Shown here piece by piece: positions 803 through 42,200 of a DNA stretch of 64,000 bases. A program made the translations under genes and the position numbers. How positions within the stretch are numbered: the stretch's first letter is position 1; every line of letters begins with the position of its first letter. This stretch comes from an uncultured virus (IMG/VR IMGVR_UViG_3300044639_000880). Lineage: Duplodnaviria; Heunggongvirae; Uroviricota; Caudoviricetes. Where the stretch lies: positions 1 to 64,000 of the IMG/VR virus record IMGVR_UViG_3300044639_000880; one strand, given 5' to 3'. The notes below the pieces were generated by a model. It did no database searches and was not told the origin of the DNA. It saw only the letters and a program-made list of their open reading frames with translations.

Positions 803-824
803 CACCTATAAATAAACCAACAAT

Positions 825-8922: not shown

Positions 8923-8940
8923 TAGTCAAAACAAACCAAC

Positions 8941-11402: not shown

Positions 11403-11578
11403 CTATGAGTGAAGATGAATATCAACATAAGGCTTTCTTTGAAAAGAAAAAAGCTGTAACAATAAAGGGTGAAAATATAACAGTTACTTTTATACCTGAT
11501 CCTTTATTTGATGAATCACAAGAAAAGAAACTCTTCTGTGAAGAGATTAAAACCAACAAAGATGATAAAGCTATTTGA
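11399..11578 (+). CDS. Small hypothetical protein (59 aa)
   Basis: Translated by hand (MTMSEDEYQHKAFF...); fills the gap in the operon. Confidence 0.45.
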   Translation: MTMSEDEYQHKAFFEKKKAVTIKGENITVTFIPDPLFDESQEKKLFCEEIKTNKDDKAI

Positions 11579-12077
11579 TTTACAAAATGGGAAGATTATT
11601 CCTACAGAACATTGTTACACTTTAGGATTTCTTAAAGACATTATGGATGCGCATCCTGCACAACATCTAAGCATATACGCGTATCTCTTTTACATGACCT
11701 GTCCTAATCCTGAAATTAATCCATACTTTAATATGCCTATTGATGAGAAGGAGTATATTATCTTGCAAGATATTCGCGCAGAATTTAGTCCTGAGGAAGA
11801 TATGATAATTACAGCATTAGGTAAGTGCACATTGATGTATGAAACCCCTACTGTTAGAGCCTTCAGAGGTATCAGTGCTATGCTAGATAGATTAGCAAGT
11901 TACATGGAGAAGACTCCTGTATCTCATGGACGGGATGGAAACATCAACTCCCTGGTGAGTGCTGCTAAGAACTTTGATGGAATCCGTAACTCATTTAAAG
12001 GAGCTTATAAAGATCTTCAAGAAGAACAACAAACAAGAACTCGCGGTGGTGGAGAACTAGCTTATGATCAGAAATAA
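11562..12077 (+). CDS. Conserved protein upstream of terL, candidate terminase small subunit
   Basis: Likely start MIKLFD at 11562 (preceded by AAACCAACAAA); helical; C-terminal RGG; TAATG coupling to terL. Confidence 0.55.
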   Translation: MIKLFDLQNGKIIPTEHCYTLGFLKDIMDAHPAQHLSIYAYLFYMTCPNPEINPYFNMPIDEKEYIILQDIRAEFSPEEDMIITALGKCTLMYETPTVRAFRGISAMLDRLASYMEKTPVSHGRDGNINSLVSAAKNFDGIRNSFKGAYKDLQEEQQTRTRGGGELAYDQK

Positions 12078-17128: not shown

Positions 17129-17136
17129 TAAATTTG
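17129..17136 (+). promoter_or_regulatory. Bacteroidota -7 promoter element
   Basis: TAAATTTG upstream of the scaffold-like gene. Confidence 0.55.
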
Positions 17137-17164
17137 TTACAGTAAATTAAATAAACCAACAACT

Positions 17165-20817: not shown

Positions 20818-20855
20818 GATCAAATAAATAATATAAACCAACAAAAAAAACCAAC

Positions 20856-22069: not shown

Positions 22070-22387
22070 ATGGCAAAAAAACTAGAAAAAGCCCAAGCGG
22101 GTAAGATAGTAAAAGCAGTAGCCAAGGGTGCTAAAGGCGCATATAAAAATTATATGAGGAATGTAGACCAGCCTAGAACTAAAGCTTACGTAGCTGCATT
22201 AGGTGTTGGAGCAGGTGCTGGTTATGCTGCACTAACACCAACCATCCGGAAAGTTGAAGCTAGAGAAAAAGCTTTAGTACCAATTAAAGAAAAATATGGA
22301 AACAATGTAGCAGATTCTACAAGAGCTAAGATGCGAAGGATGGACGATAAAAAAACAGGTGGAGCAACTAAATCTAAAAAGAAATAA
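22070..22387 (+). CDS. Tag-flanked Lys-rich mini-protein
   Basis: MAKKLEKAQAGK...KKTGGATKSKKK. Confidence 0.8.
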   Translation: MAKKLEKAQAGKIVKAVAKGAKGAYKNYMRNVDQPRTKAYVAALGVGAGAGYAALTPTIRKVEAREKALVPIKEKYGNNVADSTRAKMRRMDDKKTGGATKSKKK

Positions 22388-22389
22388 TT

Positions 22390-22590
22390 ATGAAAGATAT
22401 CAAAGCTAAAGTGGTTACTAAACCTACAGGTAAAACAGGTGGTACTAATGGTACTGCTAAAGTACAAAAAAGTATTAAAGCTAAACCTTCTGGTAAAGTT
22501 AACACTCCACCAAAAGGTGCAGTTCCTGCTGCTAAGTATGGTACTATGATGAAAAAAGGCGGTATGGTTAAATCTAAAAAATCTTGTTAA
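22390..22590 (+). CDS. Small basic repeat protein with GG motifs
   Basis: VVTKPTGKTGGTN...AKYG.MMKKGGMVKSKK. Confidence 0.75.
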   Translation: MKDIKAKVVTKPTGKTGGTNGTAKVQKSIKAKPSGKVNTPPKGAVPAAKYGTMMKKGGMVKSKKSC

Positions 22591-22591
22591 T

Positions 22592-22843
22592 ATGAAAAAG
22601 TTAGCTAAAAAACAAACAGGTGGATCTAAAGCTACAATCACTAGCACAACAGGTACTGCAACTAAGAAGATTCGTCCAGTAATTGGAAAAGGTCCTACTA
22701 GAGAAAAAAGTATAGCTGATTTACCTCCAGCAAAAAATCCAATGTCTGGTCCATCATCACCAAAACCTTCTAATCTTATACCACGTAAGATGAAGAGTGG
22801 TGGATCAACCGGTGCATTTGATAGATATTCTAAAAAGAAATAG
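22592..22843 (+). CDS. Tag-flanked Lys-rich mini-protein
   Basis: MKKLAKKQTGG...KMKSGG. Confidence 0.75.
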   Translation: MKKLAKKQTGGSKATITSTTGTATKKIRPVIGKGPTREKSIADLPPAKNPMSGPSSPKPSNLIPRKMKSGGSTGAFDRYSKKK

Positions 22844-22845
22844 TA

Positions 22846-23079
22846 ATGGCAAAAAAATTAGCAAAAGCTCAATTTGGTAAAATAATCAAAGCAGCTGTTA
22901 AAACAGTAGCTAAAGAAGCAAAGCCTGTAGTTAAGGCTGTAAAACCTATGCTTGATATTTCAAAAAAAGAAGTAGGTAATGCAGTAGCTTTATCTGAAAG
23001 AGCTAGATTAAAAGCACATCTTGAATCTTTATCTAAGAAAAAAATGGGTGGTGCCACTAAAACTAAAAAAAAGAAATAA
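22846..23079 (+). CDS. Tag-flanked Lys-rich mini-protein
   Basis: MAKKLAKAQFGK...KKMGGATKTKKKK. Confidence 0.8.
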   Translation: MAKKLAKAQFGKIIKAAVKTVAKEAKPVVKAVKPMLDISKKEVGNAVALSERARLKAHLESLSKKKMGGATKTKKKK

Positions 23080-23081
23080 TC

Positions 23082-23408
23082 ATGGCAAAAAAATGTGCAG
23101 CTTGTGAAAAAGCTAAAATGAAAAAAATGCAGTCTGGTGGTTCTATAGAGAGTTTTTTAAAATCAAAACCTTCTAAATCAGATAGTGCTAGAGCTGCTGA
23201 AAGTAAAAAAGCTATTAATGAATATATGAGTAAAAGCTTTAACAAAGATGTTAAAAATAGTCCTATAAGTAATGCAGCTAAAACTAAGACTATGGCTAAA
23301 GGTGGTTCTTTCCCTGATCTTAATAAAGATGGAAAAGTAACTAAAGCTGATATCTTAAAAGGCAGAGGTGTTATTAAAAAAATGGGTGGTCCTACTAAAA
23401 AGAAGTAA
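23082..23408 (+). CDS. Tag-flanked Lys-rich mini-protein with EF-hand/dockerin-like loop
   Basis: KMQSGG...MAKGG-SFPDLNKDGKVTKADIL...KKMGGPTKKK. Confidence 0.8.
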   Translation: MAKKCAACEKAKMKKMQSGGSIESFLKSKPSKSDSARAAESKKAINEYMSKSFNKDVKNSPISNAAKTKTMAKGGSFPDLNKDGKVTKADILKGRGVIKKMGGPTKKK

Positions 23409-23409
23409 T

Positions 23410-23691
23410 ATGAAAAAACTAGCAAAAGCTCAAATGGGCAAGATTGTTAAATCTGTAGGTAATACACTTCTTAAGAAAAGACCTACAAAACAAGTCTTTG
23501 GTGCAGCTGGTGCTATAACTGGTGGTTTAGGAACTGCAGCTGCTATCTCAACATATCAAGCTAAAAAACAATTTGCAGAAAAAGAAAAAAGTCCAGAAGG
23601 TATTGCTCAAAAGAAAAAGTATGAAGATTTAAAAAAACAATATCCAAAGTCTTTTAAAAAAAAGATGGGTGGCTCAATTAAAAAGAAATAG
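23410..23691 (+). CDS. Tag-flanked Lys-rich mini-protein
   Basis: Start corrected to 23410: MKKLAKAQMGK...KKMGGSIKKK. Confidence 0.8.
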   Translation: MKKLAKAQMGKIVKSVGNTLLKKRPTKQVFGAAGAITGGLGTAAAISTYQAKKQFAEKEKSPEGIAQKKKYEDLKKQYPKSFKKKMGGSIKKK

Positions 23692-23692
23692 T

Positions 23693-23983
23693 ATGAAAAA
23701 AACAAGTAAAGCTTTACCTAAAGCACAGTATGGAAAAGTTATAAAAGCTGCTGGTAAAAGAGCTGCAGATGCTATAGTAAGAAAGAAAGAAATGGCTAAT
23801 GATCTTAAAGCAGCAGCTGCACTAGGAGTAGGAGCAGGAGGATGGATGGCTGTAAATGAAGATGTTAAAAAGAAAAAATTAGGACCATACTCTTCAAATA
23901 GCAGTGTTAACAAAACTCAAACAGACTCTCTTAGTAAAGCAAAGAAAAAAGTAGGTGGTGCTATTAAAAGTAAAAAGAAATAG
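23693..23983 (+). CDS. Tag-flanked Lys-rich mini-protein
   Basis: Start corrected to 23693: MKKTSKALPKAQYGK...KKVGGAIKSKKK. Confidence 0.8.
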   Translation: MKKTSKALPKAQYGKVIKAAGKRAADAIVRKKEMANDLKAAAALGVGAGGWMAVNEDVKKKKLGPYSSNSSVNKTQTDSLSKAKKKVGGAIKSKKK

Positions 23984-23985
23984 TA

Positions 23986-24141
23986 ATGGCTGAAAAAAAG
24001 GATAAGAATTGGATACAAAAAGCAGTTAATCCTGCACATAAAGGATACTGCACTCCAATGACTAAAGCTACTTGTACTCCTAAAAGGAAAGCATTAGCTA
24101 TGACTTTTAAGAAAATGGCAGCTGCTAGAAAAAAGAAATAA
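23986..24141 (+). CDS. Small basic protein (51 aa)
   Basis: Translated by hand: MAEKKDKNWIQKAVNPAHKGYCTPMTKATCTPKRKALAMTFKKM... Confidence 0.75.
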   Translation: MAEKKDKNWIQKAVNPAHKGYCTPMTKATCTPKRKALAMTFKKMAAARKKK

Positions 24142-24142
24142 T

Positions 24143-24292
24143 ATGGCAAAGCAGATGATCAAAAGAAAAGATGGTAGTGTATCTCAAAGAGGTCTTTGGG
24201 ATAACATCAGAGCTAACAAAGGTTCTGGTAAAGCACCTACCAAAGAAATGCTTAAACAAGAAAAAAAGATTAAAGCTAAAACTAAGAAATAA
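24143..24292 (+). CDS. Small basic protein (49 aa)
   Basis: Translated by hand: MAKQMIKRKDGSVSQRGLWDNIRANKGSGKAPTKEML...; TAATG coupling to the next gene. Confidence 0.75.
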   Translation: MAKQMIKRKDGSVSQRGLWDNIRANKGSGKAPTKEMLKQEKKIKAKTKK

Positions 24293-24564
24293 TGGCAAAG
24301 ACTGCAGCTTGGACCAGAAAAGAAGGTAAGAATCCTTCTGGAGGATTAAATAAAAAAGGTGTTGCTTCTTATAGAGCAGCTAATCCTGGTAGTAAACTTC
24401 AAACAGCTGTTACTACTAAACCATCTAAACTTGATCCGGATAGCAAAGATGCTAAAAGGAGAAAGTCATTTTGTGCAAGAATGTCTGGTGTTAAAGGACC
24501 TATGAAAGATGAAAAAGGAAGACCTACTAGAAAAGCTCTTTCTTTAAAAAAGTGGAACTGTTAA
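24292..24564 (+). CDS. Conserved small basic phage protein (possibly DUF6321-like)
   Basis: AWTRKEGKNPSGGLN...RRKSFCARMSG...KWNC pattern recalled from aquatic phages. Confidence 0.75.
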   Translation: MAKTAAWTRKEGKNPSGGLNKKGVASYRAANPGSKLQTAVTTKPSKLDPDSKDAKRRKSFCARMSGVKGPMKDEKGRPTRKALSLKKWNC

Positions 24565-24575
24565 AATAATATACT

Positions 24576-25181
24576 ATGAAAAAAACAACTAACTCAAATC
24601 CATTAAAGTACTTTAATGATGAGAAGGCTAAAAAAGTAGCTAAGCTTACTAAGGCTCAAGATGGGATGAACTATACTCGTAAATATGTATCTAATGTATT
24701 TGACAATGACCAATCTTTTTTAAATAGTACTAAAGAGGCACCTAAGAAATTTAATATTGTAAAAAACATTAAAGAAAAAATTAATGAGTATAAAGAAGAT
24801 AAAGCCAATAGAGATGCTTATAAAAATAGACCAAGATTTACAGCTACATCTGTATTGGTTCCAATACCTGAATCCTATACAAATACAAAAGCTGTGTCTG
24901 ATACTTCTTCTACTAAAAAAGTTAATACTACCCCTACTAAAAAAGTAGAAACAAAAGGTCCTAAAGGAGTAATTCCAGGAACTAGTACAAGTAAAAGTAC
25001 TTATACAGATAAAGATAGTAAACCTGTTTATACAGATACTTCTAGACCTAATGAATACTTTACTATGACAAAAACAAAAGCTGGTCAGGATAGTTTAGCT
25101 CCATACAATTCTCAAATGGGATTATATGGTGAAGTAAGAAAAAAATCAGGTGGTCAAACTAAATCTAAAAAGAAGAAATAA
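24576..25181 (+). CDS. Tag-flanked Lys/Thr-rich protein
   Basis: KLTKAQDG...RKKSGGQTKSKKKK. Confidence 0.75.
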   Translation: MKKTTNSNPLKYFNDEKAKKVAKLTKAQDGMNYTRKYVSNVFDNDQSFLNSTKEAPKKFNIVKNIKEKINEYKEDKANRDAYKNRPRFTATSVLVPIPESYTNTKAVSDTSSTKKVNTTPTKKVETKGPKGVIPGTSTSKSTYTDKDSKPVYTDTSRPNEYFTMTKTKAGQDSLAPYNSQMGLYGEVRKKSGGQTKSKKKK

Positions 25182-25366
25182 TGGGAAAATATAAATTACC
25201 AAGCTATCCTAACAGTGAAAACCAGGATGCAAAGAATAACAAGATTATGGAGCAATTCCGTAAGTTTAAAGAACAAGGTAACCGCGTAGAGGCTGTTAGT
25301 GTATTCAACTTAGACAACATGCCTCCAACTGTAGTTCCTGATTTTAAAAAACCTAAGAAAAAATAA
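25181..25366 (+). CDS. Small hypothetical protein
   Basis: TAATG coupling on both sides. Confidence 0.6.
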   Translation: MGKYKLPSYPNSENQDAKNNKIMEQFRKFKEQGNRVEAVSVFNLDNMPPTVVPDFKKPKKK

Positions 25367-28902: not shown

Positions 28903-28922
28903 ACCAATAAAACCAACATAAA

Positions 28923-29124: not shown

Positions 29125-32100
29125 ATGGCATGCTATAAACTCTCCTCATGTACAGCAGGTAATACAACAATACTTTGGTCTAATGATCCTGGTTTTGCAG
29201 GATTAGTTGGACAAACAATTCAACTTACACCTTATTCTGGTATATGTCTTACTGTAGAGTTAATAGAAACACCATGTATTTGTCAACCAAATAGTCCTGA
29301 TGTCAATGCAACTCAGGCCTCATCTTGTGAATGCACCAGTCCTAATGATTGTTATAAATTAACAGAGTGTAATGATTCAATACCTCCTATCTATGTAAGT
29401 AACAATCTTAATCCTTATATAGGATTATCTATTGCAGTAGAAGAATATCCAGGTTATTGTTTTAATGTAACTGGTGTTGAGGATCCAGCAGAGTGTGAGG
29501 CTAACTTACCTAATATTCAAGTTACATGTGTTAATCTATGTACTTGTGATCTTTTTTGTTACGAGCTTACTAACTGTTTAGTTGCTGATACAATTATAGT
29601 TCATACATCTTTAACTCTTACTTTAAATACAGTTATTGCAATAACTCCTGCTGTAATTGCGCCTGGTGGAAATAACTGCTGGACAGTAACAGATCTTTAT
29701 GTTCAGCCTTGTGATATTAGTACAGGAGTACTTGTAACCAGTATCATCCCTTACGGAGTAAGTGGTTGCGCTGCTTGTGGAATACCTCTGCCTTGTTATA
29801 CATTAGCTGATTGTTCTGGTAATATATTACCTTTTAATACAAATTCTAACTTGGCTGCCTATATAGGACAAGCTGTTCATTTAACTGAATATGGAGGTTG
29901 TGCAGGTCCTTGCTTTTTAGTAAGTCTTAATGCCGGACCTTGTCCAGTTGTTGAACCAGCAACGGTTACTCTAGGTTGTGTACTTTGTCCACCTTGTAAT
30001 CAAACATGTTATAAATTAATTGATTGTGAAACTAGAATTCAATATGCTATACTATCAAGTCCTACAGCAAACGGAGTTGACTTAAGCTTACTTGTTGGTC
30101 AAAGTATTGGCAAAGTATGTCTTAGTCCAGAACCTGTAGAATGTACTACTGGTTGTTGGGAAGTACAAATTTCAAATACTTGTGGAGGTGCTATATCAGC
30201 TTATGTATATAATATTTATGATGATTGCAATGCTTGTACAAATAGTTGTTATGTTTTTCAAAATTGTCAGACGGGTGCGCTAGGTCCTATAATTAAGTAT
30301 ACAGTTCCTAATCCTAATGGTTTACCTAATCCTAGTACTTTAACAGGAGCAGTAGGTTCTTTATGTTTTACGGCTCCTACTGGATGTCTTACAGGTTGTT
30401 ATCAATTATTACCACAACCAGGTGCTTCTTGTGTAGGTAGTATTGATTGGTCAACGGCTGTAAGTTATACACCATATAATGATTGCTTTAGCTGTTTACC
30501 AAAGTGTTATCTACTTACAGAATGTGCTCCCGCAATTTCAGTACCTATAGTAGTAAATAATGATCTTAGTCTGTATGTAGGACAAGTAGCTAAAATATGT
30601 GATTCATTAGGAGAATGTCATTGTTATAATGTAGAAATTTCACAGAGTTGTAATGGAGCTATCACTATTGATAATGCTAGTGCTAGTTTTACAACTTGTG
30701 AAGAATGTAATTCATGCGAGTGTCCTCCAGGCTATACTAAAGTAGGAGAGTTTTGTCAGAAGATAACAAGTATTCCAGCTGTAGCAAATCCTGTAATATA
30801 TTCAACAGGTCCTGGTAGTTTAAATACTGCCTTCTATGGAATACTAGGAACAAACTTTTATGGTAATATTTCAGCTTTACCTTTTCCATTAACTGCAGTT
30901 ACCGGCCCAGATCGTTTTCAAGATGCTTCTGCTACAAATGTAGTAGCTGTAAATAATATTATTGGTGTATGGGGTCCTGGTGCAGCATCAAGATTAAACT
31001 CTGTTGGTGTATGGACTACAGTTAATCCTAATCCTTTATCACAATGGATTGGTTTTACAGAATGCATTACTATCCCAACTACTGGTATTTATTGTATAGG
31101 TATTGGTGGCGATGATGCTGTAAGAATAAAAATTGATGGTGTATTGGTTGCTATAGCTAACATAGGCTTATTTGATTTTCGATACTGGCATGTATTTGAA
31201 ATCAGTCTTACTGCAGGAACTCACATAATCACCTTAGAAGGTTATAATACCGCAGGTAATACAGCTTTTGCTGCAGAAATATATAATGTAACTTCAGCAA
31301 CTCTTCAAACTTATACTACATCTGTTCAGGTACAGTTAGCTACAATATTTAGTACTTTTCCTAAAAGAATAAGTGGTACTTTTCAAACAGGTGAAACCTC
31401 TGGTTATTCATGTCCTCCCGGTTATGCTCTTAATTCATGCGGTGATAAACTTGTTTGTAGTTTAATTGAAACCATTCCTTATGTAGAATGCGCGGCTACT
31501 TATTTAGTAACAAGTTGTGAACCAGGTGTAGAACCTTTTTTAACTAATACTGACTTATCCGCGTATATAGGATCAACCTATAAAGCTTGTATAACCAATC
31601 CTACATATTCTACAACTTGTTTTATTTTAAAAGATTGTAATAGATTAGTTTCTGATATTGTTACTAATACTAATCTAACAAGCAGCTTATGGCAAATAAT
31701 TAAGGTTGATGGTTATCCAGGATCTTGTTTTATTGTAACAGGTGTTCCTGTAGGAAATCCTTGCATTGCTCCTATCCCTGTAGTAGCTTCATCACCTGTT
31801 GAAGGTTCTTGTAATTGTCCAGGAGCTCAAGTTCCTTGGCCAAATGGTTGTTATTGTGTAACTGTAGAAGAAGTTGCTTCAGAAGTTGCTATAAATTTTT
31901 TAGGAGTTTTTACAACAGAATATGTAGCATGCGAAGATTGTTTACAAGTTTGTTATGTTCTTACTGATTGTAATGATGCTTTAGATCCTGTTACTGTTTG
32001 TAATGATTTAGAAAATTATATAGGACAAGTTATTAAAATAGAAGGTTGTGGTGATATTTGCTGGCAAGTATCTCTTGCATTAAATTGTGATTCTAATTTA

Positions 32101-33414
32101 GCTATACCAGGCAAGATAACGCTTTATGAAGATTGTGAAGCTTGTCTTCCTCCTCTTCCGCCAGTTCCACCACCTTATGATTTACATTTAAGAAAAATTA
32201 AACCAGGTTGGAAGAGTCCTAATAGTTGTTATACTTTAGATTATATAGAAAGAATTAACTGTACTTTTGGACAGCAAATTTATAATGAAATGCTTGTTGC
32301 AAGATATGGTATAACCGTATGTTGTGATGAGGATGTCAATAAGTGGGATATTAAGAAACAAATGTTAGATCTTGATATGCTTAAAGATCCTAATCTTTGT
32401 AAGTCAACTTTATGCTGTTGTCCTGCTCCTTGTTTTATAGAAGCTTTTGTAACAGTGCTTCCTTTCTGTGGAGTTCCTAATATAGTATCTGTAGTTTTTA
32501 ATCTACCTTGTCCTGCGCCTGTATTAATTGATGTGGAAATTGAGGTACTTAGTGAACCTGCTGCATGTCGTTGCTTTTCTGTAGAAGTATTAGATGAACC
32601 GGTTAGTATTAGTTATATTGATTGTTGCTGTGTAGTTCAAACACAAGTAATAGATGCAGTAGGTATTTATCCTATATGTTCTTCTACAGCGCCTGTATCA
32701 ATAAATAATCCATCAAGTATTGTTGTTACTGACAGTGGTTTATGCGGTGTATCTCCTTTATGTACACCTCCACCTTTTCAAGTATGTTCATGTTGGTCAA
32801 TCTATAATCCAACAGTTGCAACTTTAGGATTTAGTATTGCTGCTATTTGCCCAGCTGGTCCAGATCCTGTAGAACAAGCAGGAACAATTGCTCCTCTAGT
32901 AACTATATATAATTGTTCTGTTGCACCTCCTGTAGTTGCTAATGGTTTAATAGTTACAAATACAGGACCTTGTAGTGATTACTGTGGTCCTATTCCTGCT
33001 GTATGTGTATGTTATTTACTACATGCTACTGAATCTTGTGCTTATACTTATCCTGATTGTAATGGTCGGCCAGCAAGTGGAACTTTAGTAATTGGTGATA
33101 ATTATATATGTGCTTATAGTATGCCTCTATTAGATCCAGCTTGTGCAGATTTTGTTACAATAGCTGCTACAGCAAATGTTTGTGTTGATGGTCAATGTGG
33201 ACCACCTTGTATATGTTATGTAGTAACAGTACCGTCTGATGGTAATCAGCATTTTATTACCATAACAGATTGTTTAGGTAATCTTATTATTAATACACCA
33301 TATTTTGGAGGTACATATTATATTTGTTCTCAAAATAGTATTTTAAGTGATCCAAACGTGTCTTATTCACCTACATCATTTGGATGTGGGCCAGGTCAAT
33401 GTGTAGAACCATAG
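29125..33414 (+). CDS. Giant Cys-rich repeat protein with PA14-like domain (putative fibre/hub)
   Basis: About 120 Cys by hand count; repeated CYxLxxC...SN.L..Y.GQ units; PA14-like GIYCIGIGGDDAVRIKIDG...LTAGTH segment. Confidence 0.7.
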   Translation: MACYKLSSCTAGNTTILWSNDPGFAGLVGQTIQLTPYSGICLTVELIETPCICQPNSPDVNATQASSCECTSPNDCYKLTECNDSIPPIYVSNNLNPYIGLSIAVEEYPGYCFNVTGVEDPAECEANLPNIQVTCVNLCTCDLFCYELTNCLVADTIIVHTSLTLTLNTVIAITPAVIAPGGNNCWTVTDLYVQPCDISTGVLVTSIIPYGVSGCAACGIPLPCYTLADCSGNILPFNTNSNLAAYIGQAVHLTEYGGCAGPCFLVSLNAGPCPVVEPATVTLGCVLCPPCNQTCYKLIDCETRIQYAILSSPTANGVDLSLLVGQSIGKVCLSPEPVECTTGCWEVQISNTCGGAISAYVYNIYDDCNACTNSCYVFQNCQTGALGPIIKYTVPNPNGLPNPSTLTGAVGSLCFTAPTGCLTGCYQLLPQPGASCVGSIDWSTAVSYTPYNDCFSCLPKCYLLTECAPAISVPIVVNNDLSLYVGQVAKICDSLGECHCYNVEISQSCNGAITIDNASASFTTCEECNSCECPPGYTKVGEFCQKITSIPAVANPVIYSTGPGSLNTAFYGILGTNFYGNISALPFPLTAVTGPDRFQDASATNVVAVNNIIGVWGPGAASRLNSVGVWTTVNPNPLSQWIGFTECITIPTTGIYCIGIGGDDAVRIKIDGVLVAIANIGLFDFRYWHVFEISLTAGTHIITLEGYNTAGNTAFAAEIYNVTSATLQTYTTSVQVQLATIFSTFPKRISGTFQTGETSGYSCPPGYALNSCGDKLVCSLIETIPYVECAATYLVTSCEPGVEPFLTNTDLSAYIGSTYKACITNPTYSTTCFILKDCNRLVSDIVTNTNLTSSLWQIIKVDGYPGSCFIVTGVPVGNPCIAPIPVVASSPVEGSCNCPGAQVPWPNGCYCVTVEEVASEVAINFLGVFTTEYVACEDCLQVCYVLTDCNDALDPVTVCNDLENYIGQVIKIEGCGDICWQVSLALNCDSNLAIPGKITLYEDCEACLPPLPPVPPPYDLHLRKIKPGWKSPNSCYTLDYIERINCTFGQQIYNEMLVARYGITVCCDEDVNKWDIKKQMLDLDMLKDPNLCKSTLCCCPAPCFIEAFVTVLPFCGVPNIVSVVFNLPCPAPVLIDVEIEVLSEPAACRCFSVEVLDEPVSISYIDCCCVVQTQVIDAVGIYPICSSTAPVSINNPSSIVVTDSGLCGVSPLCTPPPFQVCSCWSIYNPTVATLGFSIAAICPAGPDPVEQAGTIAPLVTIYNCSVAPPVVANGLIVTNTGPCSDYCGPIPAVCVCYLLHATESCAYTYPDCNGRPASGTLVIGDNYICAYSMPLLDPACADFVTIAATANVCVDGQCGPPCICYVVTVPSDGNQHFITITDCLGNLIINTPYFGGTYYICSQNSILSDPNVSYSPTSFGCGPGQCVEP

Positions 33415-33465
33415 ATGATTAATTAAAATAATAAAATAATAAGTATATTTAACAATAAATAAAAT

Positions 33466-34932
33466 ATGAAACCTTTAAACATAGATAAGACCGGATGTAG
33501 TAATATATCATCTAACTGCGTAACATGGCAGGGGCCAGATATTGAATGTATAAATTTATGTAAGGGAGATTCCGTTACAGAAGTTGTATACAAAATGGCT
33601 TTAGAGCTGTGTAAATTGATGGATACCTTTGATTTAACAAATTATGATTTAAAATGCTTTTCAAGTGGAGTATGTCAACCACAAGATTTTAAAGATTTTA
33701 TCAACATACTTATTAACAAAGTATGTCTTATACAAACCTGTTCTGGTTGTGCAGATCCTTGTTCACCAACACCTGTAGTAGTTACTGCTCAGTCTGTTCT
33801 TGGAAGTTCTGATTCTCAGTATGTGCCTATTGCTAAAGAGTTTCAGTATACTAATAGTTTAGGTGATCTAGTTACTACTATGTTAGTTAGTGATTATGTT
33901 CAAGCTATTGGAAATAAAGTATCTATTTTAGTTAATTCTACAACTGCAATACAAGAACAGTTGTTAGATCATACTTTAAGAATACAAGCTTTGGAAGATG
34001 CGCCAGCTCCAGTATTTACATTACCTCTTATTACAAATAGTGATGGAGATCAAATGTCTTTATCAGAAGCTACTCAAAATCTTCAAACTGCTTTTTATCA
34101 GTTAGAAACTGCTACAGGAACACCAAATGAAATTTATACTAACATTGCTAAGCAATCAGGCAGTCTTAATACAGCTGCTAGTTTATCTGTACCAAATGCT
34201 ACTATGGCATCTTTACCAGGATGGAATACTACTGTTGTAAATCAAGCTGATAGTGTTGGTAATATTTGGCAAACTGTTCTTGATATGCGTCTTGCTTTAC
34301 AGAACTTAATAACTAATTATATTCCTAGCGAGTGTAGATCAATTTCTATAAGTCTTATTGCAACATATGCTACTGATACAATAACTTTGTTTATGACAGG
34401 AGTTATTCCTTCAAGCTTTACAAATACTATACCTGGCGGTACACCTTTTACAATAACTGATATGTACGGTAATGTATTAGTTGTTAATATTAATATACCT
34501 ACTGTTATAAATAATCCAGAAGGTTTTGCTATTTCTATTACAGGAACAAGAATTAATCCAGCAGGTAATTTAGCTATTACAGCTGAACCTAGTTTTACAA
34601 ATAATACATCAGGATCTGAATGCAAATCAATTCTTCAATATCTTATAAGTAATCAAGCATCTTGTCCTGCAGTTACCTATGTACCTACAAGCACAAGTAT
34701 TGAGTTTTCATTTCTTACAGATACCGGTAACAAGATTTACACTGCTGAATTATGGGCTCCAGGAGCTGTAGCACCTACTAGTAGTCAATCATTTACTTCG
34801 ACAGCTGTTGGTACAATAACTAGTGTATTTGCAACATTAACTGCAAATACAGCTTACAGACTTAGAATATTAATAAATATAAATGGTATAATCACAACTT
34901 GTCCATTTACTGCAGTAAATACATTAATTTAA
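33466..34932 (+). CDS. Structural protein: Cys-rich N-terminus, coiled coil, C-terminal Fn3-like domain
   Basis: CSNISSNCVTWQGPDIEC N-motif; LTANTAYRLRI Fn3-like strand. Confidence 0.65.
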   Translation: MKPLNIDKTGCSNISSNCVTWQGPDIECINLCKGDSVTEVVYKMALELCKLMDTFDLTNYDLKCFSSGVCQPQDFKDFINILINKVCLIQTCSGCADPCSPTPVVVTAQSVLGSSDSQYVPIAKEFQYTNSLGDLVTTMLVSDYVQAIGNKVSILVNSTTAIQEQLLDHTLRIQALEDAPAPVFTLPLITNSDGDQMSLSEATQNLQTAFYQLETATGTPNEIYTNIAKQSGSLNTAASLSVPNATMASLPGWNTTVVNQADSVGNIWQTVLDMRLALQNLITNYIPSECRSISISLIATYATDTITLFMTGVIPSSFTNTIPGGTPFTITDMYGNVLVVNINIPTVINNPEGFAISITGTRINPAGNLAITAEPSFTNNTSGSECKSILQYLISNQASCPAVTYVPTSTSIEFSFLTDTGNKIYTAELWAPGAVAPTSSQSFTSTAVGTITSVFATLTANTAYRLRILININGIITTCPFTAVNTLI

Positions 34933-34943
34933 AATAAAAAGAA

Positions 34944-36155
34944 ATGACTACTAATTGTTCAAAATGTGGAACTTGTGATTGTGATTGTATACCTCAGGGT
35001 CTTACAACACCTAACTATTGTCCATCAGATCTACCACCTTGCCCAGATCCTAGTCCATGTAATGAGACTTTTGATAGCAAGTGTGTTATATATACAGGAG
35101 AAGATATTCCTTGTTTTAGTATTGAAACAGGAAATACTGTAGAAGAGGTTATAACAAATATGACTTCTCTATTACAACCTTTATTGTGTTTAAATTGTAC
35201 TATAATAAATATCCCGGCTAATGATGCTTTACAAGTACCGGTCAATCAAATCATGAGTTGGAATATTGTTCCTGGTGCTACATATTATGATGTGTATTTT
35301 GGAACAAATCCTACTACTCCTCCTTTGGTGGCTGCCGGCCAAATTAGCACTGCCTATACACATCCTTATCCTTTAGTTCCCAATACAGATTATTATTGGA
35401 AAGTGATACCAGGAAATAATGCAGGCAGTGTAAATGCTTGCCCTATTTACCATTTTAAGACTAAGGAATTACTTTGTGTAAATCCTTTATCTTATATGCT
35501 TGATTATGTTATGAGTGAACAACCATCAGGTAATGTACTAAATGTAGAAACTCTTGTTGAATCAATAAATGAGTTTCTTGACAATGGTGAGTTAATAACT
35601 AATTGTAATTTCTGTTGCCCTGATTGTACAGATACTCATAGATATGTATTAGCATCTGCTCCGGTATTTGCTACATATTATAATGATTTTTATGATATTA
35701 ATACTTGTCCTCCTGTATGTTGTATTGAAGTAGATGCATCATTAACAGCTCTTACTACTGTACTTGCTCCAGGATCACCTACATTAGCTGCTGCTTTTAA
35801 AGCTGTACCTCCTCCAACTAATTGTTGTGGAACTAATTTTAGTGAATGTAGTGAAAGCTTAAAAATAGCATTAGGCACATCACGCGATGCAATCTTTAAA
35901 ATACTAGGTGTAGTAGAAGAATCTACAATCAACCTTAGTACAGAACTTTGTATTCTTGCAACTTTCTTAAATGGATTACCTACAGCTGTTACACCTTTAC
36001 AAAAAGCATTAATCATTGCTGCAATTCTTAATAAAGGTTTTGTTGTAGATTGCCGTCCAGAAGGTACAATCATATCAGGATTATTAAAATATAAAGAATA
36101 TGTAGTTGCCGCAGAAGATGGCTGTCTATGTTATATACCATGTGTAATATCTTAA
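34944..36155 (+). CDS. Cys-rich structural protein with Fn3-like domain
   Basis: C.E..DSKCVIYTG.DI.C motif shared with 33466; WNIVPGATYYDVYFG...LVPNTDYYWKV. Confidence 0.65.
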   Translation: MTTNCSKCGTCDCDCIPQGLTTPNYCPSDLPPCPDPSPCNETFDSKCVIYTGEDIPCFSIETGNTVEEVITNMTSLLQPLLCLNCTIINIPANDALQVPVNQIMSWNIVPGATYYDVYFGTNPTTPPLVAAGQISTAYTHPYPLVPNTDYYWKVIPGNNAGSVNACPIYHFKTKELLCVNPLSYMLDYVMSEQPSGNVLNVETLVESINEFLDNGELITNCNFCCPDCTDTHRYVLASAPVFATYYNDFYDINTCPPVCCIEVDASLTALTTVLAPGSPTLAAAFKAVPPPTNCCGTNFSECSESLKIALGTSRDAIFKILGVVEESTINLSTELCILATFLNGLPTAVTPLQKALIIAAILNKGFVVDCRPEGTIISGLLKYKEYVVAAEDGCLCYIPCVIS

Positions 36156-36165
36156 ACTAATAAAT

Positions 36166-36882
36166 ATGTTAACACCAGCAACAATAACAGTAAATTTCAC
36201 AGCCAATTATGCAGGCGCGCATAGAATATGTTGGAGACAATGTAATGTAGGTTCTTATGTATGTACTAATGTAGTATCATGTGTAGGAGGCGGCAATGTG
36301 TGTAGTGCTACTATTTCTATAATGGTAGATCCAGAAAGTTGTACACCAATATGCTTTGAGGGATATATTCAAGCAACTTGTAATCCTGAGAATTCTTCTG
36401 TAGGCCAAGTACCTTGGTCAACTACTTTTACACCAACTCCAACTTGTAGTATGTATTCTATTACTTGTACAAGTCCTCCACTTAATCAACCTTGTGGAGT
36501 AATTTCTGCAGCTACAATGGGTTTAGATTGTAATGGTACACCAAGACCAGAGGTAGGACCTATTACTGCTGCTACTTCTGTATATGTATGTGCTACTGGA
36601 TTAATTCCAAATCTTCCTTTAGGTTATGAGATGACACTTTTTGATGGATGTTGTACTGATTGTGAACAATACACTATTACAATTATGCCTGGTATTATGC
36701 CTAGTGAATTAGATGGATCTTCTATTTATTACATAGATTGTGCAACAAAAGAACTTATCAGAATAGACTTAACAGGTAGTGTGTCTTATACTTTAACAGC
36801 TTGTATGGTTACCGGATCTATTAATCTGTATTTAACTCCGACTGTTAGTGGTATAATTACACAAGGTATACCTTGTCCATAA
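36166..36882 (+). CDS. Cys-rich structural protein
   Basis: Beta-rich, many Cys; C-terminal units resemble those at the end of 29125. Confidence 0.6.
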   Translation: MLTPATITVNFTANYAGAHRICWRQCNVGSYVCTNVVSCVGGGNVCSATISIMVDPESCTPICFEGYIQATCNPENSSVGQVPWSTTFTPTPTCSMYSITCTSPPLNQPCGVISAATMGLDCNGTPRPEVGPITAATSVYVCATGLIPNLPLGYEMTLFDGCCTDCEQYTITIMPGIMPSELDGSSIYYIDCATKELIRIDLTGSVSYTLTACMVTGSINLYLTPTVSGIITQGIPCP

Positions 36883-36891
36883 TATTAAAAT

Positions 36892-36917
36892 GTCATGATT
36901 TGTTGGTTCAACATGAC
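36892..36917 (+). ncRNA. Candidate antisense hairpin RNA (loop complementary to AACCAAC leaders)
   Basis: GTCATG / CATGAC stem enclosing ATTTGTTGGTTCAA, directly before a terminator. Confidence 0.45.
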
Positions 36918-36928
36918 TAATAGGTGAG

Positions 36929-36957
36929 AACCCCGGTTAAATTATACTGGGGTTTTT
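36929..36957 (+). terminator. Intrinsic terminator
   Basis: AACCCCGG / CTGGGGTT stem (one G-U pair) followed by Ts. Confidence 0.75.
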
Positions 36958-36988
36958 GCTACTTGAAAAAAAAGATGTAAATTTAGCT

Positions 36989-37582
36989 ATGATAAAAGAG
37001 TTTAAAAAGCCAGACTTAACCGCTCCAAGATGTAGACCCGGAGCACATAAAATAGTGAATGCTAGCTTTTTAAAAGAGTTTAAAGAAAAGCATCCTCAAT
37101 ATAAAGACTTAACTAATCATGAGATTAATCTTATTCTATCTACTTTTCATGGAAAGTTGTGGGATCATACTCTTCTTAATAGAGATGGTATAGAGCTATT
37201 AGAAGGATTGGGTTATATATTTATTGGAACTTGTTTTTCAGCTAAAAAATTTAATATTGATGTAGCTAATTCTATAAAGAATAAGTTTAAAACTAGACAT
37301 AACAATTTTGAATCTGATAATTATTTAGCAAAAATATTTTATACAAATTTTTCTACTAAGTATAGATTTAAAAATAGAGAGATGTGGACTTTTAAAGCAA
37401 CAAGAGATTTTAAAAGAAGTGTAGCTAAAGTATATCCTGTAAACTGGAAACTTTATGTACAAGTTGAGAGCGGAAAAAATATTGCTAACTACATGAAAAG
37501 AGCTAGAAAGAATGATTACTTTAGAAAGATTGGAGAAACTTTTATAGCTGATTCTTCATATAATGAATTTGATTTAAACTAG
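36989..37582 (+). CDS. IHF/HU-like protein of the crAss-like tail module
   Basis: Likely start MIKEFK at 36989; two helices plus DGIELLEGLGYIFIG hairpin; synteny. Confidence 0.6.
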   Translation: MIKEFKKPDLTAPRCRPGAHKIVNASFLKEFKEKHPQYKDLTNHEINLILSTFHGKLWDHTLLNRDGIELLEGLGYIFIGTCFSAKKFNIDVANSIKNKFKTRHNNFESDNYLAKIFYTNFSTKYRFKNREMWTFKATRDFKRSVAKVYPVNWKLYVQVESGKNIANYMKRARKNDYFRKIGETFIADSSYNEFDLN

Positions 37583-37588
37583 TATACA

Positions 37589-38260
37589 ATGACAACAATA
37601 GGTGAAGCTATCTCAAGAGTTCGTAATACAATCAAAGGTGTAAAAGAAGATGCCTTTCTTACAGATAGATTTATATACAGTCTTCTTATTAAACATGCTA
37701 ATTATATTGTCCGCAAGTTGGACAATGAGAATAAGATCATGCGTATCCAAAGCTTATTTGAGAAAATACCTTGTGTAGATCTTATTGAAGTAAGTACTAT
37801 TGACGCGTGTTGTGCAGGTGTGAAAACCAACTGTACTATAATGAGAACTAAAGAACATATACCAGAACCTATGGAAGGATCTGAAGGACCATTAATTAGA
37901 ACAGTTACTTCTTTAGATGGTTCTATTATCATGAATAATACAAATCCAAGTACTTATGTATACATGACTGGCCAACCTACTTTCAAATATAATAAAACTA
38001 AGTACTACTGGTATCTAGAAGGACATTTATATTTTCCAAATATTGAGTGGGAAGGTGTAAGAGTAGATGGTATATTTACATCATCTACAAAGAAGTTTCA
38101 CTGTGATCAAGATCCGTGTGCACCAAGACAGGATGATAGATTAGCAGTTCCAGAATTTATATTTGCTGAAGTAGAACAATTAGTTTTGAAAGATCTTGCA
38201 TTTATGTTGCAAACACCAACAGAGACACAAGACGATAAAATGAATCCTTTAAGATCTTAA
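37589..38260 (+). CDS. Putative tail ring/tubular protein
   Basis: crAss-like synteny; YYWYLEGHLYFPN segment; C-terminal D..NP. Confidence 0.65.
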   Translation: MTTIGEAISRVRNTIKGVKEDAFLTDRFIYSLLIKHANYIVRKLDNENKIMRIQSLFEKIPCVDLIEVSTIDACCAGVKTNCTIMRTKEHIPEPMEGSEGPLIRTVTSLDGSIIMNNTNPSTYVYMTGQPTFKYNKTKYYWYLEGHLYFPNIEWEGVRVDGIFTSSTKKFHCDQDPCAPRQDDRLAVPEFIFAEVEQLVLKDLAFMLQTPTETQDDKMNPLRS

Positions 38261-38264
38261 ATCC

Positions 38265-39293
38265 ATGAGTTATAACTATACCCTTAGATACAGAACATTT
38301 GACCAGCTTCTTGATGCTGCCAGAATAGATCTTACTCAATATGATTTAACTAATTATATTGAACCTCAGCAATTGATTAAAGTTGCTAAAAGAGTTAACT
38401 ATGATCTTGGATTAAGAATCATGGGTACAAAAGAAACTTTATTAGAAGTAAAAAAAGGAAAAGTAAGATTACCCACAGACTTTTATGTATTGAATTATGC
38501 ATTAGTTTGTGATAATGTAACTGTGCACGAGCCCGTAAGCCAAGGCACTTTTATAGAAGAGAGACCTGTAGGAATTCCTACTTATAAATCAATTGGTCCA
38601 GCTGTTATCAACTCTTGTACAGATGGTACTGTTAACTGTCAGACCTGTGGTATTCCTTGTAATACTTGTACTTGTCAACAACTTCCTGCAGCATGTCCTG
38701 CTTTACCGGATGATCAGAGTTATTGTAAAACTCCTAGACTTGAGTTAAACTGTAAAGGTGAGAGCTTTGAATTAGTGCAGATTGTTCATGGTACAACGCG
38801 TACTTATAGAAGGATGTGGCCATTAAGACTTATTACAAATAATGAAACTATTGCTTGTGATTGTCCTAATCTTTATGTAAAGTCTGCAGATCATGCTTGG
38901 ATTCAAGGTGATTTCTTATTTACTAATTTAGAAACAGCTAATATTTATATTAGTTACCAAGGTCAATTAGAAGATGATAATGGAAACTTATTAGTTCCGG
39001 ATCATGATTTACTTAATGAGTATTATGAATATGCTATTAAGCAACGGATTCTAGAGAACTTAATTATGAATGATGAGCCTGTAGGTCAGAAGTTACAATT
39101 AGTTGAAGCAAGATTACGTGTAGCAAAAAGTGCAGCTAATGCTCTTGTGCACACTCCCAATTTTGCAGAGATGCGTGAGATGTGGTGGACTAACAGAAAA
39201 GCTCAGTATGGTAAATACTATGAGGCTTTTAAGTCTTATCCGTGGAACCAACAAAGTAATCCTAATGTTAATGGTCAAATGAATAGATTCTAA
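38265..39293 (+). CDS. Putative tail ring/tubular protein (with Cys-rich insert)
   Basis: V..GKVRLPTDF...ISYQG...DD.G.LLVPD...EYYEYAIK pattern. Confidence 0.65.
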   Translation: MSYNYTLRYRTFDQLLDAARIDLTQYDLTNYIEPQQLIKVAKRVNYDLGLRIMGTKETLLEVKKGKVRLPTDFYVLNYALVCDNVTVHEPVSQGTFIEERPVGIPTYKSIGPAVINSCTDGTVNCQTCGIPCNTCTCQQLPAACPALPDDQSYCKTPRLELNCKGESFELVQIVHGTTRTYRRMWPLRLITNNETIACDCPNLYVKSADHAWIQGDFLFTNLETANIYISYQGQLEDDNGNLLVPDHDLLNEYYEYAIKQRILENLIMNDEPVGQKLQLVEARLRVAKSAANALVHTPNFAEMREMWWTNRKAQYGKYYEAFKSYPWNQQSNPNVNGQMNRF

Positions 39294-42200
39294 TGGCAGA
39301 GCAAAATAACAGTACTAGCAGCAATGACTCAAAGAGTTTTGATAAATCACTTAACAAAGATGTTAATGATTTTCACTTGCCCACCAATGAATGGAGCGGA
39401 GCTAGAAATGCTATAAACAATTCTATCACCGGTGATTTAGGTAAATTAGGTAATGAACCCGCAAACTTATTATGTCTGACAACAGATTTAAAGTATCCTA
39501 TAATTGGGTTCATTCATATTATAGAAGATAAATGGGCTGTGTTTTCTACAGACAGTGTTAATTCTGAAATTGGTCTGTTTGTAGAAAGTAATTGTGGTGT
39601 TCCAGATCCTATAAAGAACCCTGCATACAGTGTTGTTGTTAATGCAGCCTGTCTTAATTTTAAACCGGAGAACCTGATCATAGGTGTTAGCCGTGCTACA
39701 AGTACTTGTACATACAAATTATATTGGGATGATGGTCTTAATCCATCTAGAGTACTTGAGATTGATGTAGATAATCCTCTTAACAATCTTCCTTTTCTTC
39801 CTCCTCCAGCGCCTCCAGGAACTAACAATCCTAACAGTCCTATTCCTTGGGTACAGAACTGTGTTGATTCAAATGGTCCAGCTCCTGGTGGATGTATCAT
39901 CTGTACCAACACTCCGGTTCTAGATTGTGATAAGTTAAGACTTGCTCAATTTATGAGTCCTATTTGTCCTAGAGTAGCTAATGGTGTATCTGGTGGGAAT
40001 CTTTTAAATGGTTCTTACCTGGTTGCTATGGCGTATGCTATCAAAGGCCAAAAAATAAGTGACTGGTATGTATCAAATGTGCAATCTCTATGGACCCAAG
40101 GAAATTCATCAGGATCACTTGATGTCTTTATAGATAGCATTGATCTAGATTTTGATGAGATTCTAGTTACTCTTATCTCAGTAGTTAATCAACAAGCTGT
40201 TGGTAGAGATGCTGGTATATACAGCACACGTCAAACAAGATTAAGCTTTGATATTATTAATGATGCTTGGCCGGCTGTTCCTGTGGAGCAACTTCCAATC
40301 ATGACTCCTATTGTAGATAAGTCAGATGCTATGTATGCAGTAGGTGATTACTTAATACGCGTAGGACCAACAAACAAACAAGACTTTAATTATCAACCCT
40401 TAGCTAATCAGATAGTAGCTAAGTGGCAATCTGTAGAATATTCCGGAGACTATTATGCAAAAGGTGGTAATAAAACTAACTACATGCGCGATGAAGTATA
40501 TGCATTTTTCATCCAGTGGATTTATGATACAGGTGATAAGTCTGCTTCATATCATATCCCAGGTAGACCGGCTTTTCCTAATGATATTACACCAGCTAAT
40601 GTTTTAAATGCTTTTACCGGAGATACTCTTAATTGGCAAGTAGAAAATACAGCAACAGCTATTCCTATAGCTCCTGTACCTCAATCCGATGGTGGAGTTC
40701 TTATAGGAGAAGGTTATATGGGATACTGGGAATCAACTGAATTCTATCCAGATAAAACACCTCAAATATGGAATGCTGATTCACAATGTTGGTCATCATT
40801 AACTCCTAATCTTATACCAAATTGTACAGAACCTATTCCTCCAATTCCTTATCCGGGAACTGTTGCAGGAAATGCTTCATACAATTTATGTGGGACTCCT
40901 ATTAGACATCATAAGTTTCCTGAAGACAATCTTACTGCTGAGACTAACCGATACAATGCAGGCTTGGGCACCACAATAAGAATCATGGGAGTTAAGTTTG
41001 AGAATATCAGAGCTCCTAGAGATAACTCAGGTAATCTTATTCCTGGAATTATTGGATATAGAATATTGAGAGGCACGCGTAATGGTAACAAGACTATTAT
41101 TGCTAAGGGTATGATTAATAACATGCATGAGTATACTGTACCAGGAAGTACTAAGAGTCACTACATGCCTAACTATCCTTATAATGATCTTGAGGCTGAT
41201 CCATTCTTAAGTACTACTAAAACATTTACATCATCTTCCTTTAATCCACTAGGTAATGGTGGTGGTGTTCAAGGAGATACACCCTTTCCAGGAGGTTTTG
41301 GTAGTTTGCAGTTTAGTCCAAACTATGTAACTTTTCATTCACCAGATACTAATTTTAAAGATCCTTTTTTATCAGCTAAAGAACTTAGAATATATCAAAA
41401 TATTCATGGTGATGTTACTGGTAAATTTGAATTATCTGAGAAGCATCCTAGAGAAAAGCTTATGACAGATTATGTATTTTTAGTATCTGCTATAGGTGGT
41501 TTAGGAATTGCTGCTTTAAACTTAAATGGTGAAAGAACAACTAATACTAATGTACCAAATTATCAAGGATTTTCTTATAGAGAGTTGTATTCTAAGACAG
41601 CTGATTATGATTTAGACCATGGGGGAACTAATACTTTACAACCAGGTGGCATACAAACCTATGGCCCAGCAATGCCGAATGCTGGAACATTAACTCAAAC
41701 TACGGGTGCAACCACAAATGTAAATGAGAATACTACTGGTGATGTTACAAATTCTGCACCTATTAAAGCCGGTTTTGCTTCTGGACCAGATCCTGACTTT
41801 TGGGATACACTTCTAATACAAGGTCCTTTAATAACGCAACTTGGATTCTTTAATGCATATGCGGGCACAGTGGGTTTGAGCAATCTTATAGGTGCTACTA
41901 CTGGTTCAGGAGGTCCGGCTGATAGTTTAAAAACTCAAGCTGGTTTAATGAATAATGATGCGGCTATCTTTAATGCGGGTGGCTCTTGGGCATACGGTAC
42001 TACTAATATATCTTACAAGGATGGTCAACAAAATAGAATTCCAAGTTTTTTAAATACAGTTGTAGCACTTCCTACATTCTTAAATTACTTTAGTGATGGT
42101 ACTGATAGTTTTATAAGATTGATTTTAGCTATTTTAAGATATAGAGATTATGCTGTAAGATATCATTCACATGGTTTTTATAATAAGACAGATTTAAAAC

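Follow-up and report, generated by a model that had tools for sequence, protein, structure and literature searches.

CpxQ, SroC, DapZ and MicL are bacterial base-pairing small RNAs that derive from 3′-UTRs. Loop-seed antisense RNAs acting by kissing are represented by CopA/CopT, RNA I/RNA II and Sok/hok. Among phage RNA hairpins, lambda nut boxB and the HK022 put hairpins precede terminators in 5′ leaders and exert their effect on RNA polymerase; lambda boxB is recognized by a protein and combines an invariant loop with a variable stem. For the Bacteroidota, passages of PMC7366714 report 3′-UTR-derived small RNA candidates in Bacteroides, and also GibS of B. thetaiotaomicron, which pairs with translation initiation regions and represses. 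According to PMC13000457 and PMC7797042, initiation in Bacteroidia relies on upstream adenines and not on Shine-Dalgarno pairing. Here we describe a two-hairpin element of a virus genome, the loop of which is complementary to a motif found directly before several gene starts of the same genome.

Genomic context

The window, that is, the whole stretch of DNA analyzed, comprises the first 64 kb of one 72,823-bp virus contig, which is estimated to be 61% complete. Its G+C content is ~0.33 and nearly every gene lies on the + strand. Pfam searches revealed a crAss-type major capsid protein together with tail ring proteins (Table 1), the combination that marks Crassvirales-like genomes. TerL is closest to Crassvirales at 24–26% identity. 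In the phage collection, the Ring-2 protein matched only Flavobacterium psychrophilum phages (~30% identity) and one Leptolyngbya phage, and DNA and protein searches of the same collection with the flanking genes gave no match. Judged from its genes, the source is a distant uncultured crAss-like phage, the host of which is presumably a member of Bacteroidota.

The genes upstream of the hairpin (29125–36155 and 36166–36882) encode Cys-rich proteins (with peptides such as CCTDCEQY and ICWRQCNV) that have no family match and vary strongly among relatives, as expected of receptor-binding proteins. Elsewhere in the window, at 22070–25366, ~12 small genes of 51–108 aa stand in tandem, each preceded by a near-identical junction (...AAATCTAAAAAGAAATAnt-ATG); each product has a lysine-rich end and one member matches DUF6321. 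Because of these junctions, AGAAATA is the top upstream 7-mer in the window genome.

Table 1. Positions in the window of the two-hairpin element, the leader motifs and the assigned genes
Feature	Position	Strand	Basis or remark
Cpn10/GroES	825-1091		Pfam
TerL	12077-14281		PHROGs
Portal protein	14288-17056		PHROGs
Crassvirus major capsid protein	18464-20101		Pfam Crass_capsid 6.3e-30
Cys-rich 238-aa gene, last of variable tail-fibre-like block	36166-36882	+	hairpin in its 3′ UTR
crAss tail ring protein 2 (Ring-2)	37589-38260		Pfam CrAss_Ring_2 5.3e-19
crAss tail ring protein 1 (Ring-1)	38265-39293		Pfam CrAss_Ring_1 1.2e-8
Holin	in window		Pfam
Hairpin 1, 5′ arm GTCATG	36892-36897	+	stem covaries in relatives
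Hairpin 1, loop, 14 nt	36898-36911	+	holds TTTGTTGGTT at 36899-36908; core TTGTTGGT
Hairpin 1, 3′ arm CATGAC	36912-36917	+	6-bp pairing with GTCATG
Purine-rich linker between hairpins (CTAAT/CTAACA-like)	36918-36929	+	RNAfold and relatives' sequences
Intrinsic terminator (core)	36930-36957	+	ACCCCGG / CTGGGGT stem, 10-nt loop, T5
AACCAAC leader, GroES (Cpn10)	815-821	+	3 nt before ATG
AACCAAC leader, 137-aa gene	8934-8940	+	abuts ATG
AACCAAC(AAA) leader, 171-aa gene before TerL	11551-11557	+	4 nt before ATG at 11562
AACCAAC leader, 418-aa gene after portal gene	17154-17160	+	4 nt before ATG
Double AACCAAC leader, 338-aa gene	20836-20855 (20836 and 20849)	+	
AACCAAC leader, 62-aa gene	28911-28917	+	first gene of block ending at hairpin

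Structure of the element

A sequence-only reading of this DNA had proposed that a GTCATG/CATGAC stem presents TTTGTTGGTT in its loop just before a terminator. Both the coordinates and the predicted fold agree with this description: RNAfold of 36880–36965 gives exactly two hairpins (−29.1 kcal/mol, z −5.9) and none of 200 shuffles is as good. The second hairpin, a G+C-rich stem-loop with a T-tract directly after it, has the makeup of a Rho-independent terminator; its stem is formed by 36930–36936 with 36947–36953 and T5 occupies 36953–36957. A simple terminator scan misses it because of the 10-nt loop. The linker pairs in part with the T-tract in an extended terminator helix. Within the loop of hairpin 1, weak A-U pairing could leave only UUGGUU free in sequences of the main clade.

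Hairpin 1 starts 9 nt after the TAA (36880–36882) of the upstream ORF. Among relatives this distance is 1–15 nt; the gene in front is variable and has its terminator in common with the hairpin. The element is therefore located in a 3′-UTR and ends with the terminator of the parental mRNA, which fits the 3′-UTR anatomy proposed earlier. Upstream, relatives have in common only an A/T-rich 'AATAT'-like stretch, and no promoter of the element's own was recognized; a Bacteroidetes-type box at a fixed distance was not seen. On the minus strand there is only a 3-codon ORF (ATG ACA TTT TAA), as had been stated. The sequencing runs listed for 33000–40000 include no RNA run.

Conservation among relatives

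Relatives were gathered with the Ring-2 protein, which yielded 44 loci at 41–100% identity; one of them (L036) has no upstream DNA and was left out of the assessable loci. The two-hairpin element is present at the syntenic site in 42 of the 43 assessable related loci and absent from it in L049. A hairpin loop followed by the terminator carries GTTGGTT in 40 loci and GTTGGTA in 2 more. The element is positioned either ~700 nt or ~1,900–2,100 nt upstream of the Ring-2 gene. In the latter group, a gene for a 415–437-aa protein lies between the hairpin and a conserved 197-aa gene; therefore, the fixed feature is the end of the variable tail-fibre block and not the downstream neighbour.

The two parts of hairpin 1 evolve differently. 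The loop core TTGTTGGT is invariant in all 37 distinct sequences, as would be expected of a conserved single-stranded seed, and the stems are rewritten (GTCACG, GTCAGG, GGAGG, GCTGTGA, TCAGAAT and others). A hairpin of variable stem and invariant loop at the syntenic site, which the sequence-only reading had suggested looking for in relatives, was therefore found. We built a covariance model from ten sequences; with one match per source, it retrieved 34 at E≤0.02. In the resulting alignment (33 distinct rows), 98.0% of cells are paired, compared with 32–51% in slid-register controls. Double (compensatory) changes occur in 13 of 14 pairs (hairpin 1, 6/6; terminator, 7/8 modelled pairs), and the covariation score of 0.715 (0.230 in shuffles) is not reached by any of 500 shuffles. 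Since this alignment is fitted to the model, we added an alignment-free energy test. With the core forced to be unpaired, 30 of 33 sequences fold better than their flank shuffles at p≤0.05 (mean z −3.8). Two other approaches were set aside. A helix-length null turned out not to be discriminating: the longest core-enclosing helix has a median of 6 bp, but helices of at least 5 bp occur in 57% of flank shuffles, and only 4/33 sequences were significant. A MAFFT alignment analyzed with RNAalifold recovered the terminator alone because the arms of hairpin 1 were misaligned. G-U pairs are frequent in both helices, indicating that the structure belongs to the + strand, the same strand as the genes.

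Records reached through a different gene extend this picture. Among 25 further records collected with the 338-aa protein, 18 have a model match; 17 of these are readable and all 17 are hairpins with GTTGGT in the loop, two of them with an altered 5′ loop flank (UUUAGUUGGUUU and UAAAGUUGGUUU). The element is also carried by G051. Whole records show one copy per genome. Candidates for a second copy at L086:15003-15080 and L094:9699-9760 were rejected, being weak model matches without the loop core; at L086:15003-15140 (record G002) there is an unrelated hairpin with a terminator directly before a tRNA-like sequence. A second, weaker model match was also observed at the centre of loci L208 and L209 (records G044 and G043), where the canonical hairpin is present as well. 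It has the same linker (TGACTAACAAAG) and a terminator and differs in the upstream part, which contains CTTGGTGGTTTTT adjoining ACCAAAAC; it may be a diverged paralogue of the element.

At the nucleotide level, the window and L010 (~70% identity overall) reach a peak of 0.90 over the hairpin, with 0.45–0.85 in the flanks. In one relative (L003/L009), the intergenic region 36850–37000 is 100% identical to that of the window and the downstream 197-aa protein is only 74% identical, which points to a recombination boundary close to the element.

Among cultured phages, no carrier of the element was found. Rfam 15 at gathering thresholds gave no match in the whole window, and the best sub-threshold matches on 36500–37300 (PsrR1, Spot 42 and others, E 2.4–7.4) are terminator-driven. 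The nearest relative in culture, FpV4, contains no exact TTGTTGGT, and the model gives only a weak match there that lacks the core. G038, a complete relative lacking the element, shows no hairpin of a similar kind over 16 kb ahead of its Ring-2 gene; CACCTAA, the 7-mer enriched before its gene starts, was considered as an analogue of the leader motif and rejected, since it resembles a promoter fragment and no hairpin antisense to it was seen. A search of IMG/VR with the 14-mer GGTTTGTTGGTTTA is of no use as a census, real elements making up 2 of 80 loci among the matches listed.

Taken by its predicted fold and its covariation, the element is a conserved structured RNA of ~70 nt, encoded on the + strand at the 3′ end of the transcript of the tail-fibre block. 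An invariant loop on a variable stem is also typical of hairpins that are recognized by proteins. The loop could thus be the site of a phage or host RNA-binding protein engaged in processing, stabilizing or antiterminating, with its complementarity to leaders being incidental or serving as a guide. The single copy per genome, the position at an operon boundary and the adjoining terminator suit such a role, and so does the constancy of the loop in cases where the pairing potential next to it has changed. Against it, Pfam revealed no RNA-binding domain in the 56 window proteins scanned, most of which have no family at all, and the enrichment of the loop complement before gene starts, described in the next section, is unlikely to be a coincidence. 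We consider protein binding a rather doubtful explanation; moreover, its guide variant overlaps with the explanation by leader pairing.

Leader motif complementary to the loop

In the window, AACCAAC occurs at seven sites located 0–13 nt before the ATG of six genes (Table 1). All the leader matches listed by the sequence-only reading (at 815, 8934, 11551, 17154, 20836, 20849 and 28911) are present, and, in line with its count, five of the six genes start with ATGA. The reverse complement of the loop sequence, AACCAACAAA, is found exactly at 11551 and 20836, and additionally at 39246 inside a coding region; 815 and 17154 are 9/10 matches. The third exact match (39246–39255) falls in the last part of the Ring-1 gene and precedes by 37 nt the ATG (39293) of a 1798-aa gene, the G002 orthologue of which (1789 aa) has AACCAA 5 nt before its ATG; judging by these matches, the 1798-aa gene may be a further target. 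Strong evidence for the motif is comparative, the window-only statistics being modest: AACCAAC is seen 18 times against 7.65 expected (1/100 shuffles reaches 18), and the AACCAACAAA 10-mer with ≤1 mismatch 15 times against 9.4 (5/100 shuffles reach 15).

For the comparison, five relatives were used in full, with crude gene calls. An unbiased count of all 7-mers in the 25 nt before the start (−25 to −1) covered 659 genes from six genomes that carry the hairpin. Its top entry is AAACCAA (44 seen, 2.1 expected), followed by AACCAAC (33 seen, 1.4 expected). The top two upstream 7-mers are therefore exact complements of the invariant loop, a seed complementarity above chance. Moreover, the motif recurs on the same orthologues: the 338-aa gene, the ~420-aa gene after the portal gene, the 137-aa gene, GroES and the ~60-aa opener of the tail-fibre block. 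It also precedes a few genes that differ between genomes, some of them on the opposite strand.

The best sampled case is the 338-aa gene. Its orthologues (56 distinct leaders, 53–100% protein identity) have AACCAA in 52/56 leaders and twice in 39/56, compared with 3–7/56 in control segments, so that the expected retention of AACCAAC leaders on orthologous genes is observed. The motif is still present in this leader in the distant G019, G023 and G025 (13–16 nt from the ATG) and in G054 (locus L165). The leader of the 418-aa gene is kept in G001, G002, G003 and G005, and that of the 171-aa gene (ATG 11562) is not kept in the G001 and G002 orthologues. In the complete carriers G023, G025 and G054, a loose pattern, AAACCAA-N0-10-ATG, is not above control; this pattern is too loose to tell genomes from controls, and the target set in these three genomes may consist of one or a few genes.

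The motif behaves as a feature of initiation regions. At 28911 it shares bases with the stop codon of the gene before it, which argues against a promoter feature. The consensus of the Bacteroidetes −7 promoter box is TAnnTTTG, and TATCTTTG (795–802) and TAAATTTG (17129–17136) match it. They lie ~12–18 nt upstream of the GroES and 418-aa AACCAAC leaders, respectively, implying very short 5′ UTRs for these two genes.

The distribution of leaders bears on the possibility that the element is purely a cis-acting 3′ end, which stabilizes the tail-fibre mRNA, tunes termination or pairs only with its own 28911 leader (5′–3′ closure). The hairpin does directly follow the stop codon (by 1–15 nt) and shares the operon terminator. 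Furthermore, the block ending at the hairpin opens with an AACCAAC leader in G000, G001 and G002, and genes just upstream of the hairpin also have the motif in G002 and G003. However, an invariant loop of 8 nt would not be needed for stability alone, and the best-conserved leaders (338-aa and ~420-aa) are 16–20 kb off, in other transcription units with promoter-like TAnnTTTG boxes of their own. A cis role alone is accordingly unlikely.

A DNA-level function has also to be weighed, since at the level of duplex DNA loop and leaders represent one sequence in opposite orientations. The element might be a single-stranded DNA hairpin (an N4-type promoter, an origin or a packaging signal) or a double-stranded site of a protein that also binds AACCAAC near promoters. 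Passages of bioRxiv 10.1101/2020.03.07.982082 describe crAss-like phages as carrying a virion RNA polymerase with undefined early promoters, which would leave room for such a role. Several observations speak against it. The frequent G-U wobbles in both helices would be C-A mismatches on the other strand. The element occurs in one copy, between a stop codon and a T-tract terminator, whereas N4-type hairpin promoters stand in several copies ahead of early genes. Finally, the leader motif is strictly sense and hugs the ATG, even at an internal cistron junction that has no room for a promoter (28911). We regard a DNA-level element as very improbable.

Distribution of the motif across genomes

The hairpin and the leader motif share their distribution across phages. 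In a whole-genome 7-mer test, AAACCAA ranks 1–40 in six hairpin-bearing genomes and shows no excess in the hairpin-less G038 and FpV4. Counts of AACCAAC-N0-6-ATG in carriers exceed those in the reversed control (G001, 9 versus 0; G002, 9 versus 4; G006, 6 versus 2; G015, 5 versus 1). In four related phages without a model match, namely G038 (complete), FpV4, crAssphage cr1_1 and Azobacteroides phage ProJPt-Bp1, there are 1–2 matches versus 1–4 in the control. In five Bacteroidota genomes the motif precedes ATG at the control rate, and thus it is not a general host signal. By these comparisons, the motif is specific to hairpin-bearing phages.

A link to ribosomal RNA was also considered, in which AACCAAC leaders would recruit ribosomes through a GUUGGUU of the host rRNA and the hairpin loop would be a competing mimic. 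The variable spacing between motif and ATG (0–16 nt) does resemble a pairing element more than a position-specific context. We inspected 60 Bacteroidota rRNA loci that span the whole of 16S; 45 also cover 23S. No conserved position was found for either the motif or its complement: GTTGGTT, TTGGTTT, AACCAAC and AAACCAA occur at no position common to at least 8 of the 60 loci, and the 6-mer GTTGGT alone recurs (30 loci, ~70 nt upstream of the probe site). Together with the lack of enrichment before ATG in the five Bacteroidota genomes, this makes an rRNA-linked signal scarcely plausible.

Proposed pairing between loop and leaders

Of 64 gene starts, 7 are predicted to form duplexes of ≤−10 kcal/mol between the start region and the loop. 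The mean for shuffled loops is 0.71, with 1/300 reaching 7, and 3.3% of random windows attain −10 kcal/mol with the loop. The combination of an invariant exposed loop with a complement that is the top phage-private leader motif makes RNA–RNA pairing the most economical explanation.

In the mechanism we propose, hairpin 1 would present the single-stranded invariant loop UUUGUUGGUU(U) as a seed, with hairpin 2 being the intrinsic terminator of the tail-fibre operon. The seed would pair over 7–11 bp with the phage-specific leader (A)AACCAAC(AAA), located 0–16 nt before start codons. Proposed targets are the 338-aa and ~420-aa head-region genes, GroES, the 137-aa gene, the first gene of the tail-fibre block and a few genome-specific others. 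As this pairing would fall inside the ribosome footprint, initiation would most likely be blocked, and the RNA, either released from the mRNA or still part of it, would serve in trans as a one-to-many translational brake. We put at about even the chance that the 3′ end of the tail-fibre transcript pairs by its loop with the leaders and blocks initiation; that the two RNAs meet, and that the action is in trans and represses rather than activates, is what we infer. Occlusion appears to be the likeliest outcome of pairing because the host group uses upstream adenines, the motif lies in the ribosome footprint and GibS provides a precedent.

Several observations count against this pairing. The duplexes are modest, at −10 to −12 kcal/mol. 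The loop and the leader are both invariant among relatives, and no compensatory change links them, so that the covariation between loop and leader suggested earlier as a check was not seen; the base preceding GUUGGUU on its 5′ side is changed in G041 and G057, where the leaders are still AACCAACA. The regulatory logic is a further difficulty, as the RNA terminates what is presumably a late operon and most candidate targets are also structural. In addition, one part of the sequence-only reading, that arm and loop together are antisense to motif, spacer and ATGA, has to be given up as a general feature. The 5′ arm GTCATGA is found in the window's clade only, and most relatives have GTCACGG, GTCAGG, GGAGG or others instead; therefore, pairing with the start codon is not conserved.

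Pairing might also have the opposite effect. The RNA could be a trans-acting guide that delivers or marks phage mRNAs for ribosomes, alone or with a phage or ribosomal protein, as an activator or selector substituting for the Shine-Dalgarno/anti-Shine-Dalgarno interaction. This would explain why the leader motif is absent from genomes of the host phylum and yet kept on the most important head-region genes. We hold such a guide to be distinctly improbable.

Significance of the element

No description of the element was found in full-text searches of the literature or in passages of the phi14:2 preprint, and the words 'motif' and 'UTR' do not occur in PMC9723584. The element is a new RNA family that most likely follows a known principle in a layout, one motif for many genes, that is unusual in a phage. 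crAss-like phages are among the most abundant Bacteroidota viruses, and translation control in non-Shine-Dalgarno hosts is little known. In this setting, one invariant RNA loop and one phage-specific leader are kept together over deep divergence (Ring-2 identity down to ~44%). If the proposed pairing is true, a single 70-nt RNA would coordinate head, chaperonin and tail-fibre synthesis in a compact one-to-many circuit at the level of translation, which would be without a described precedent in this phage order. The element is also a new family to be entered in catalogues such as Rfam, and it conveniently marks where the variable tail-fibre module ends.

Comparison with known systems

One close likeness is to the 3′-UTR-derived small RNAs. 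Like them, the element directly follows a stop codon, shares the intrinsic terminator of the parental mRNA and has a short conserved seed with complementarity to several mRNAs. It differs in being encoded by a phage, in having the seed in a hairpin loop instead of a linear 5′ region, and in that its targets carry one dedicated phage-private leader motif.

GibS, as presented in passages of PMC7366714, acts in the same host phylum, which makes no use of Shine-Dalgarno pairing, and it pairs with initiation regions and represses, as is proposed for the element. However, the same passages describe GibS as a chromosomal intergenic small RNA with an unstructured 5′ seed of 30–50 nt and two validated targets. 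There is no likeness between the two in sequence or structure (no Rfam match).

With the kissing antisense RNAs, the element shares an exposed loop that offers nucleating bases to a target RNA. CopA/CopT, RNA I/RNA II and Sok/hok are cis-encoded, fully complementary and directed at a single target, whereas the element is predicted to pair over 7–11 nt in trans with several linear A/C-rich leaders. Lambda boxB and HK022 put, too, are phage RNA hairpins close to terminators in which the loop is conserved and the stem varies. In contrast to them, the element is found at the end of an operon, and sequences complementary to its loop stand in multiple copies in front of gene starts.
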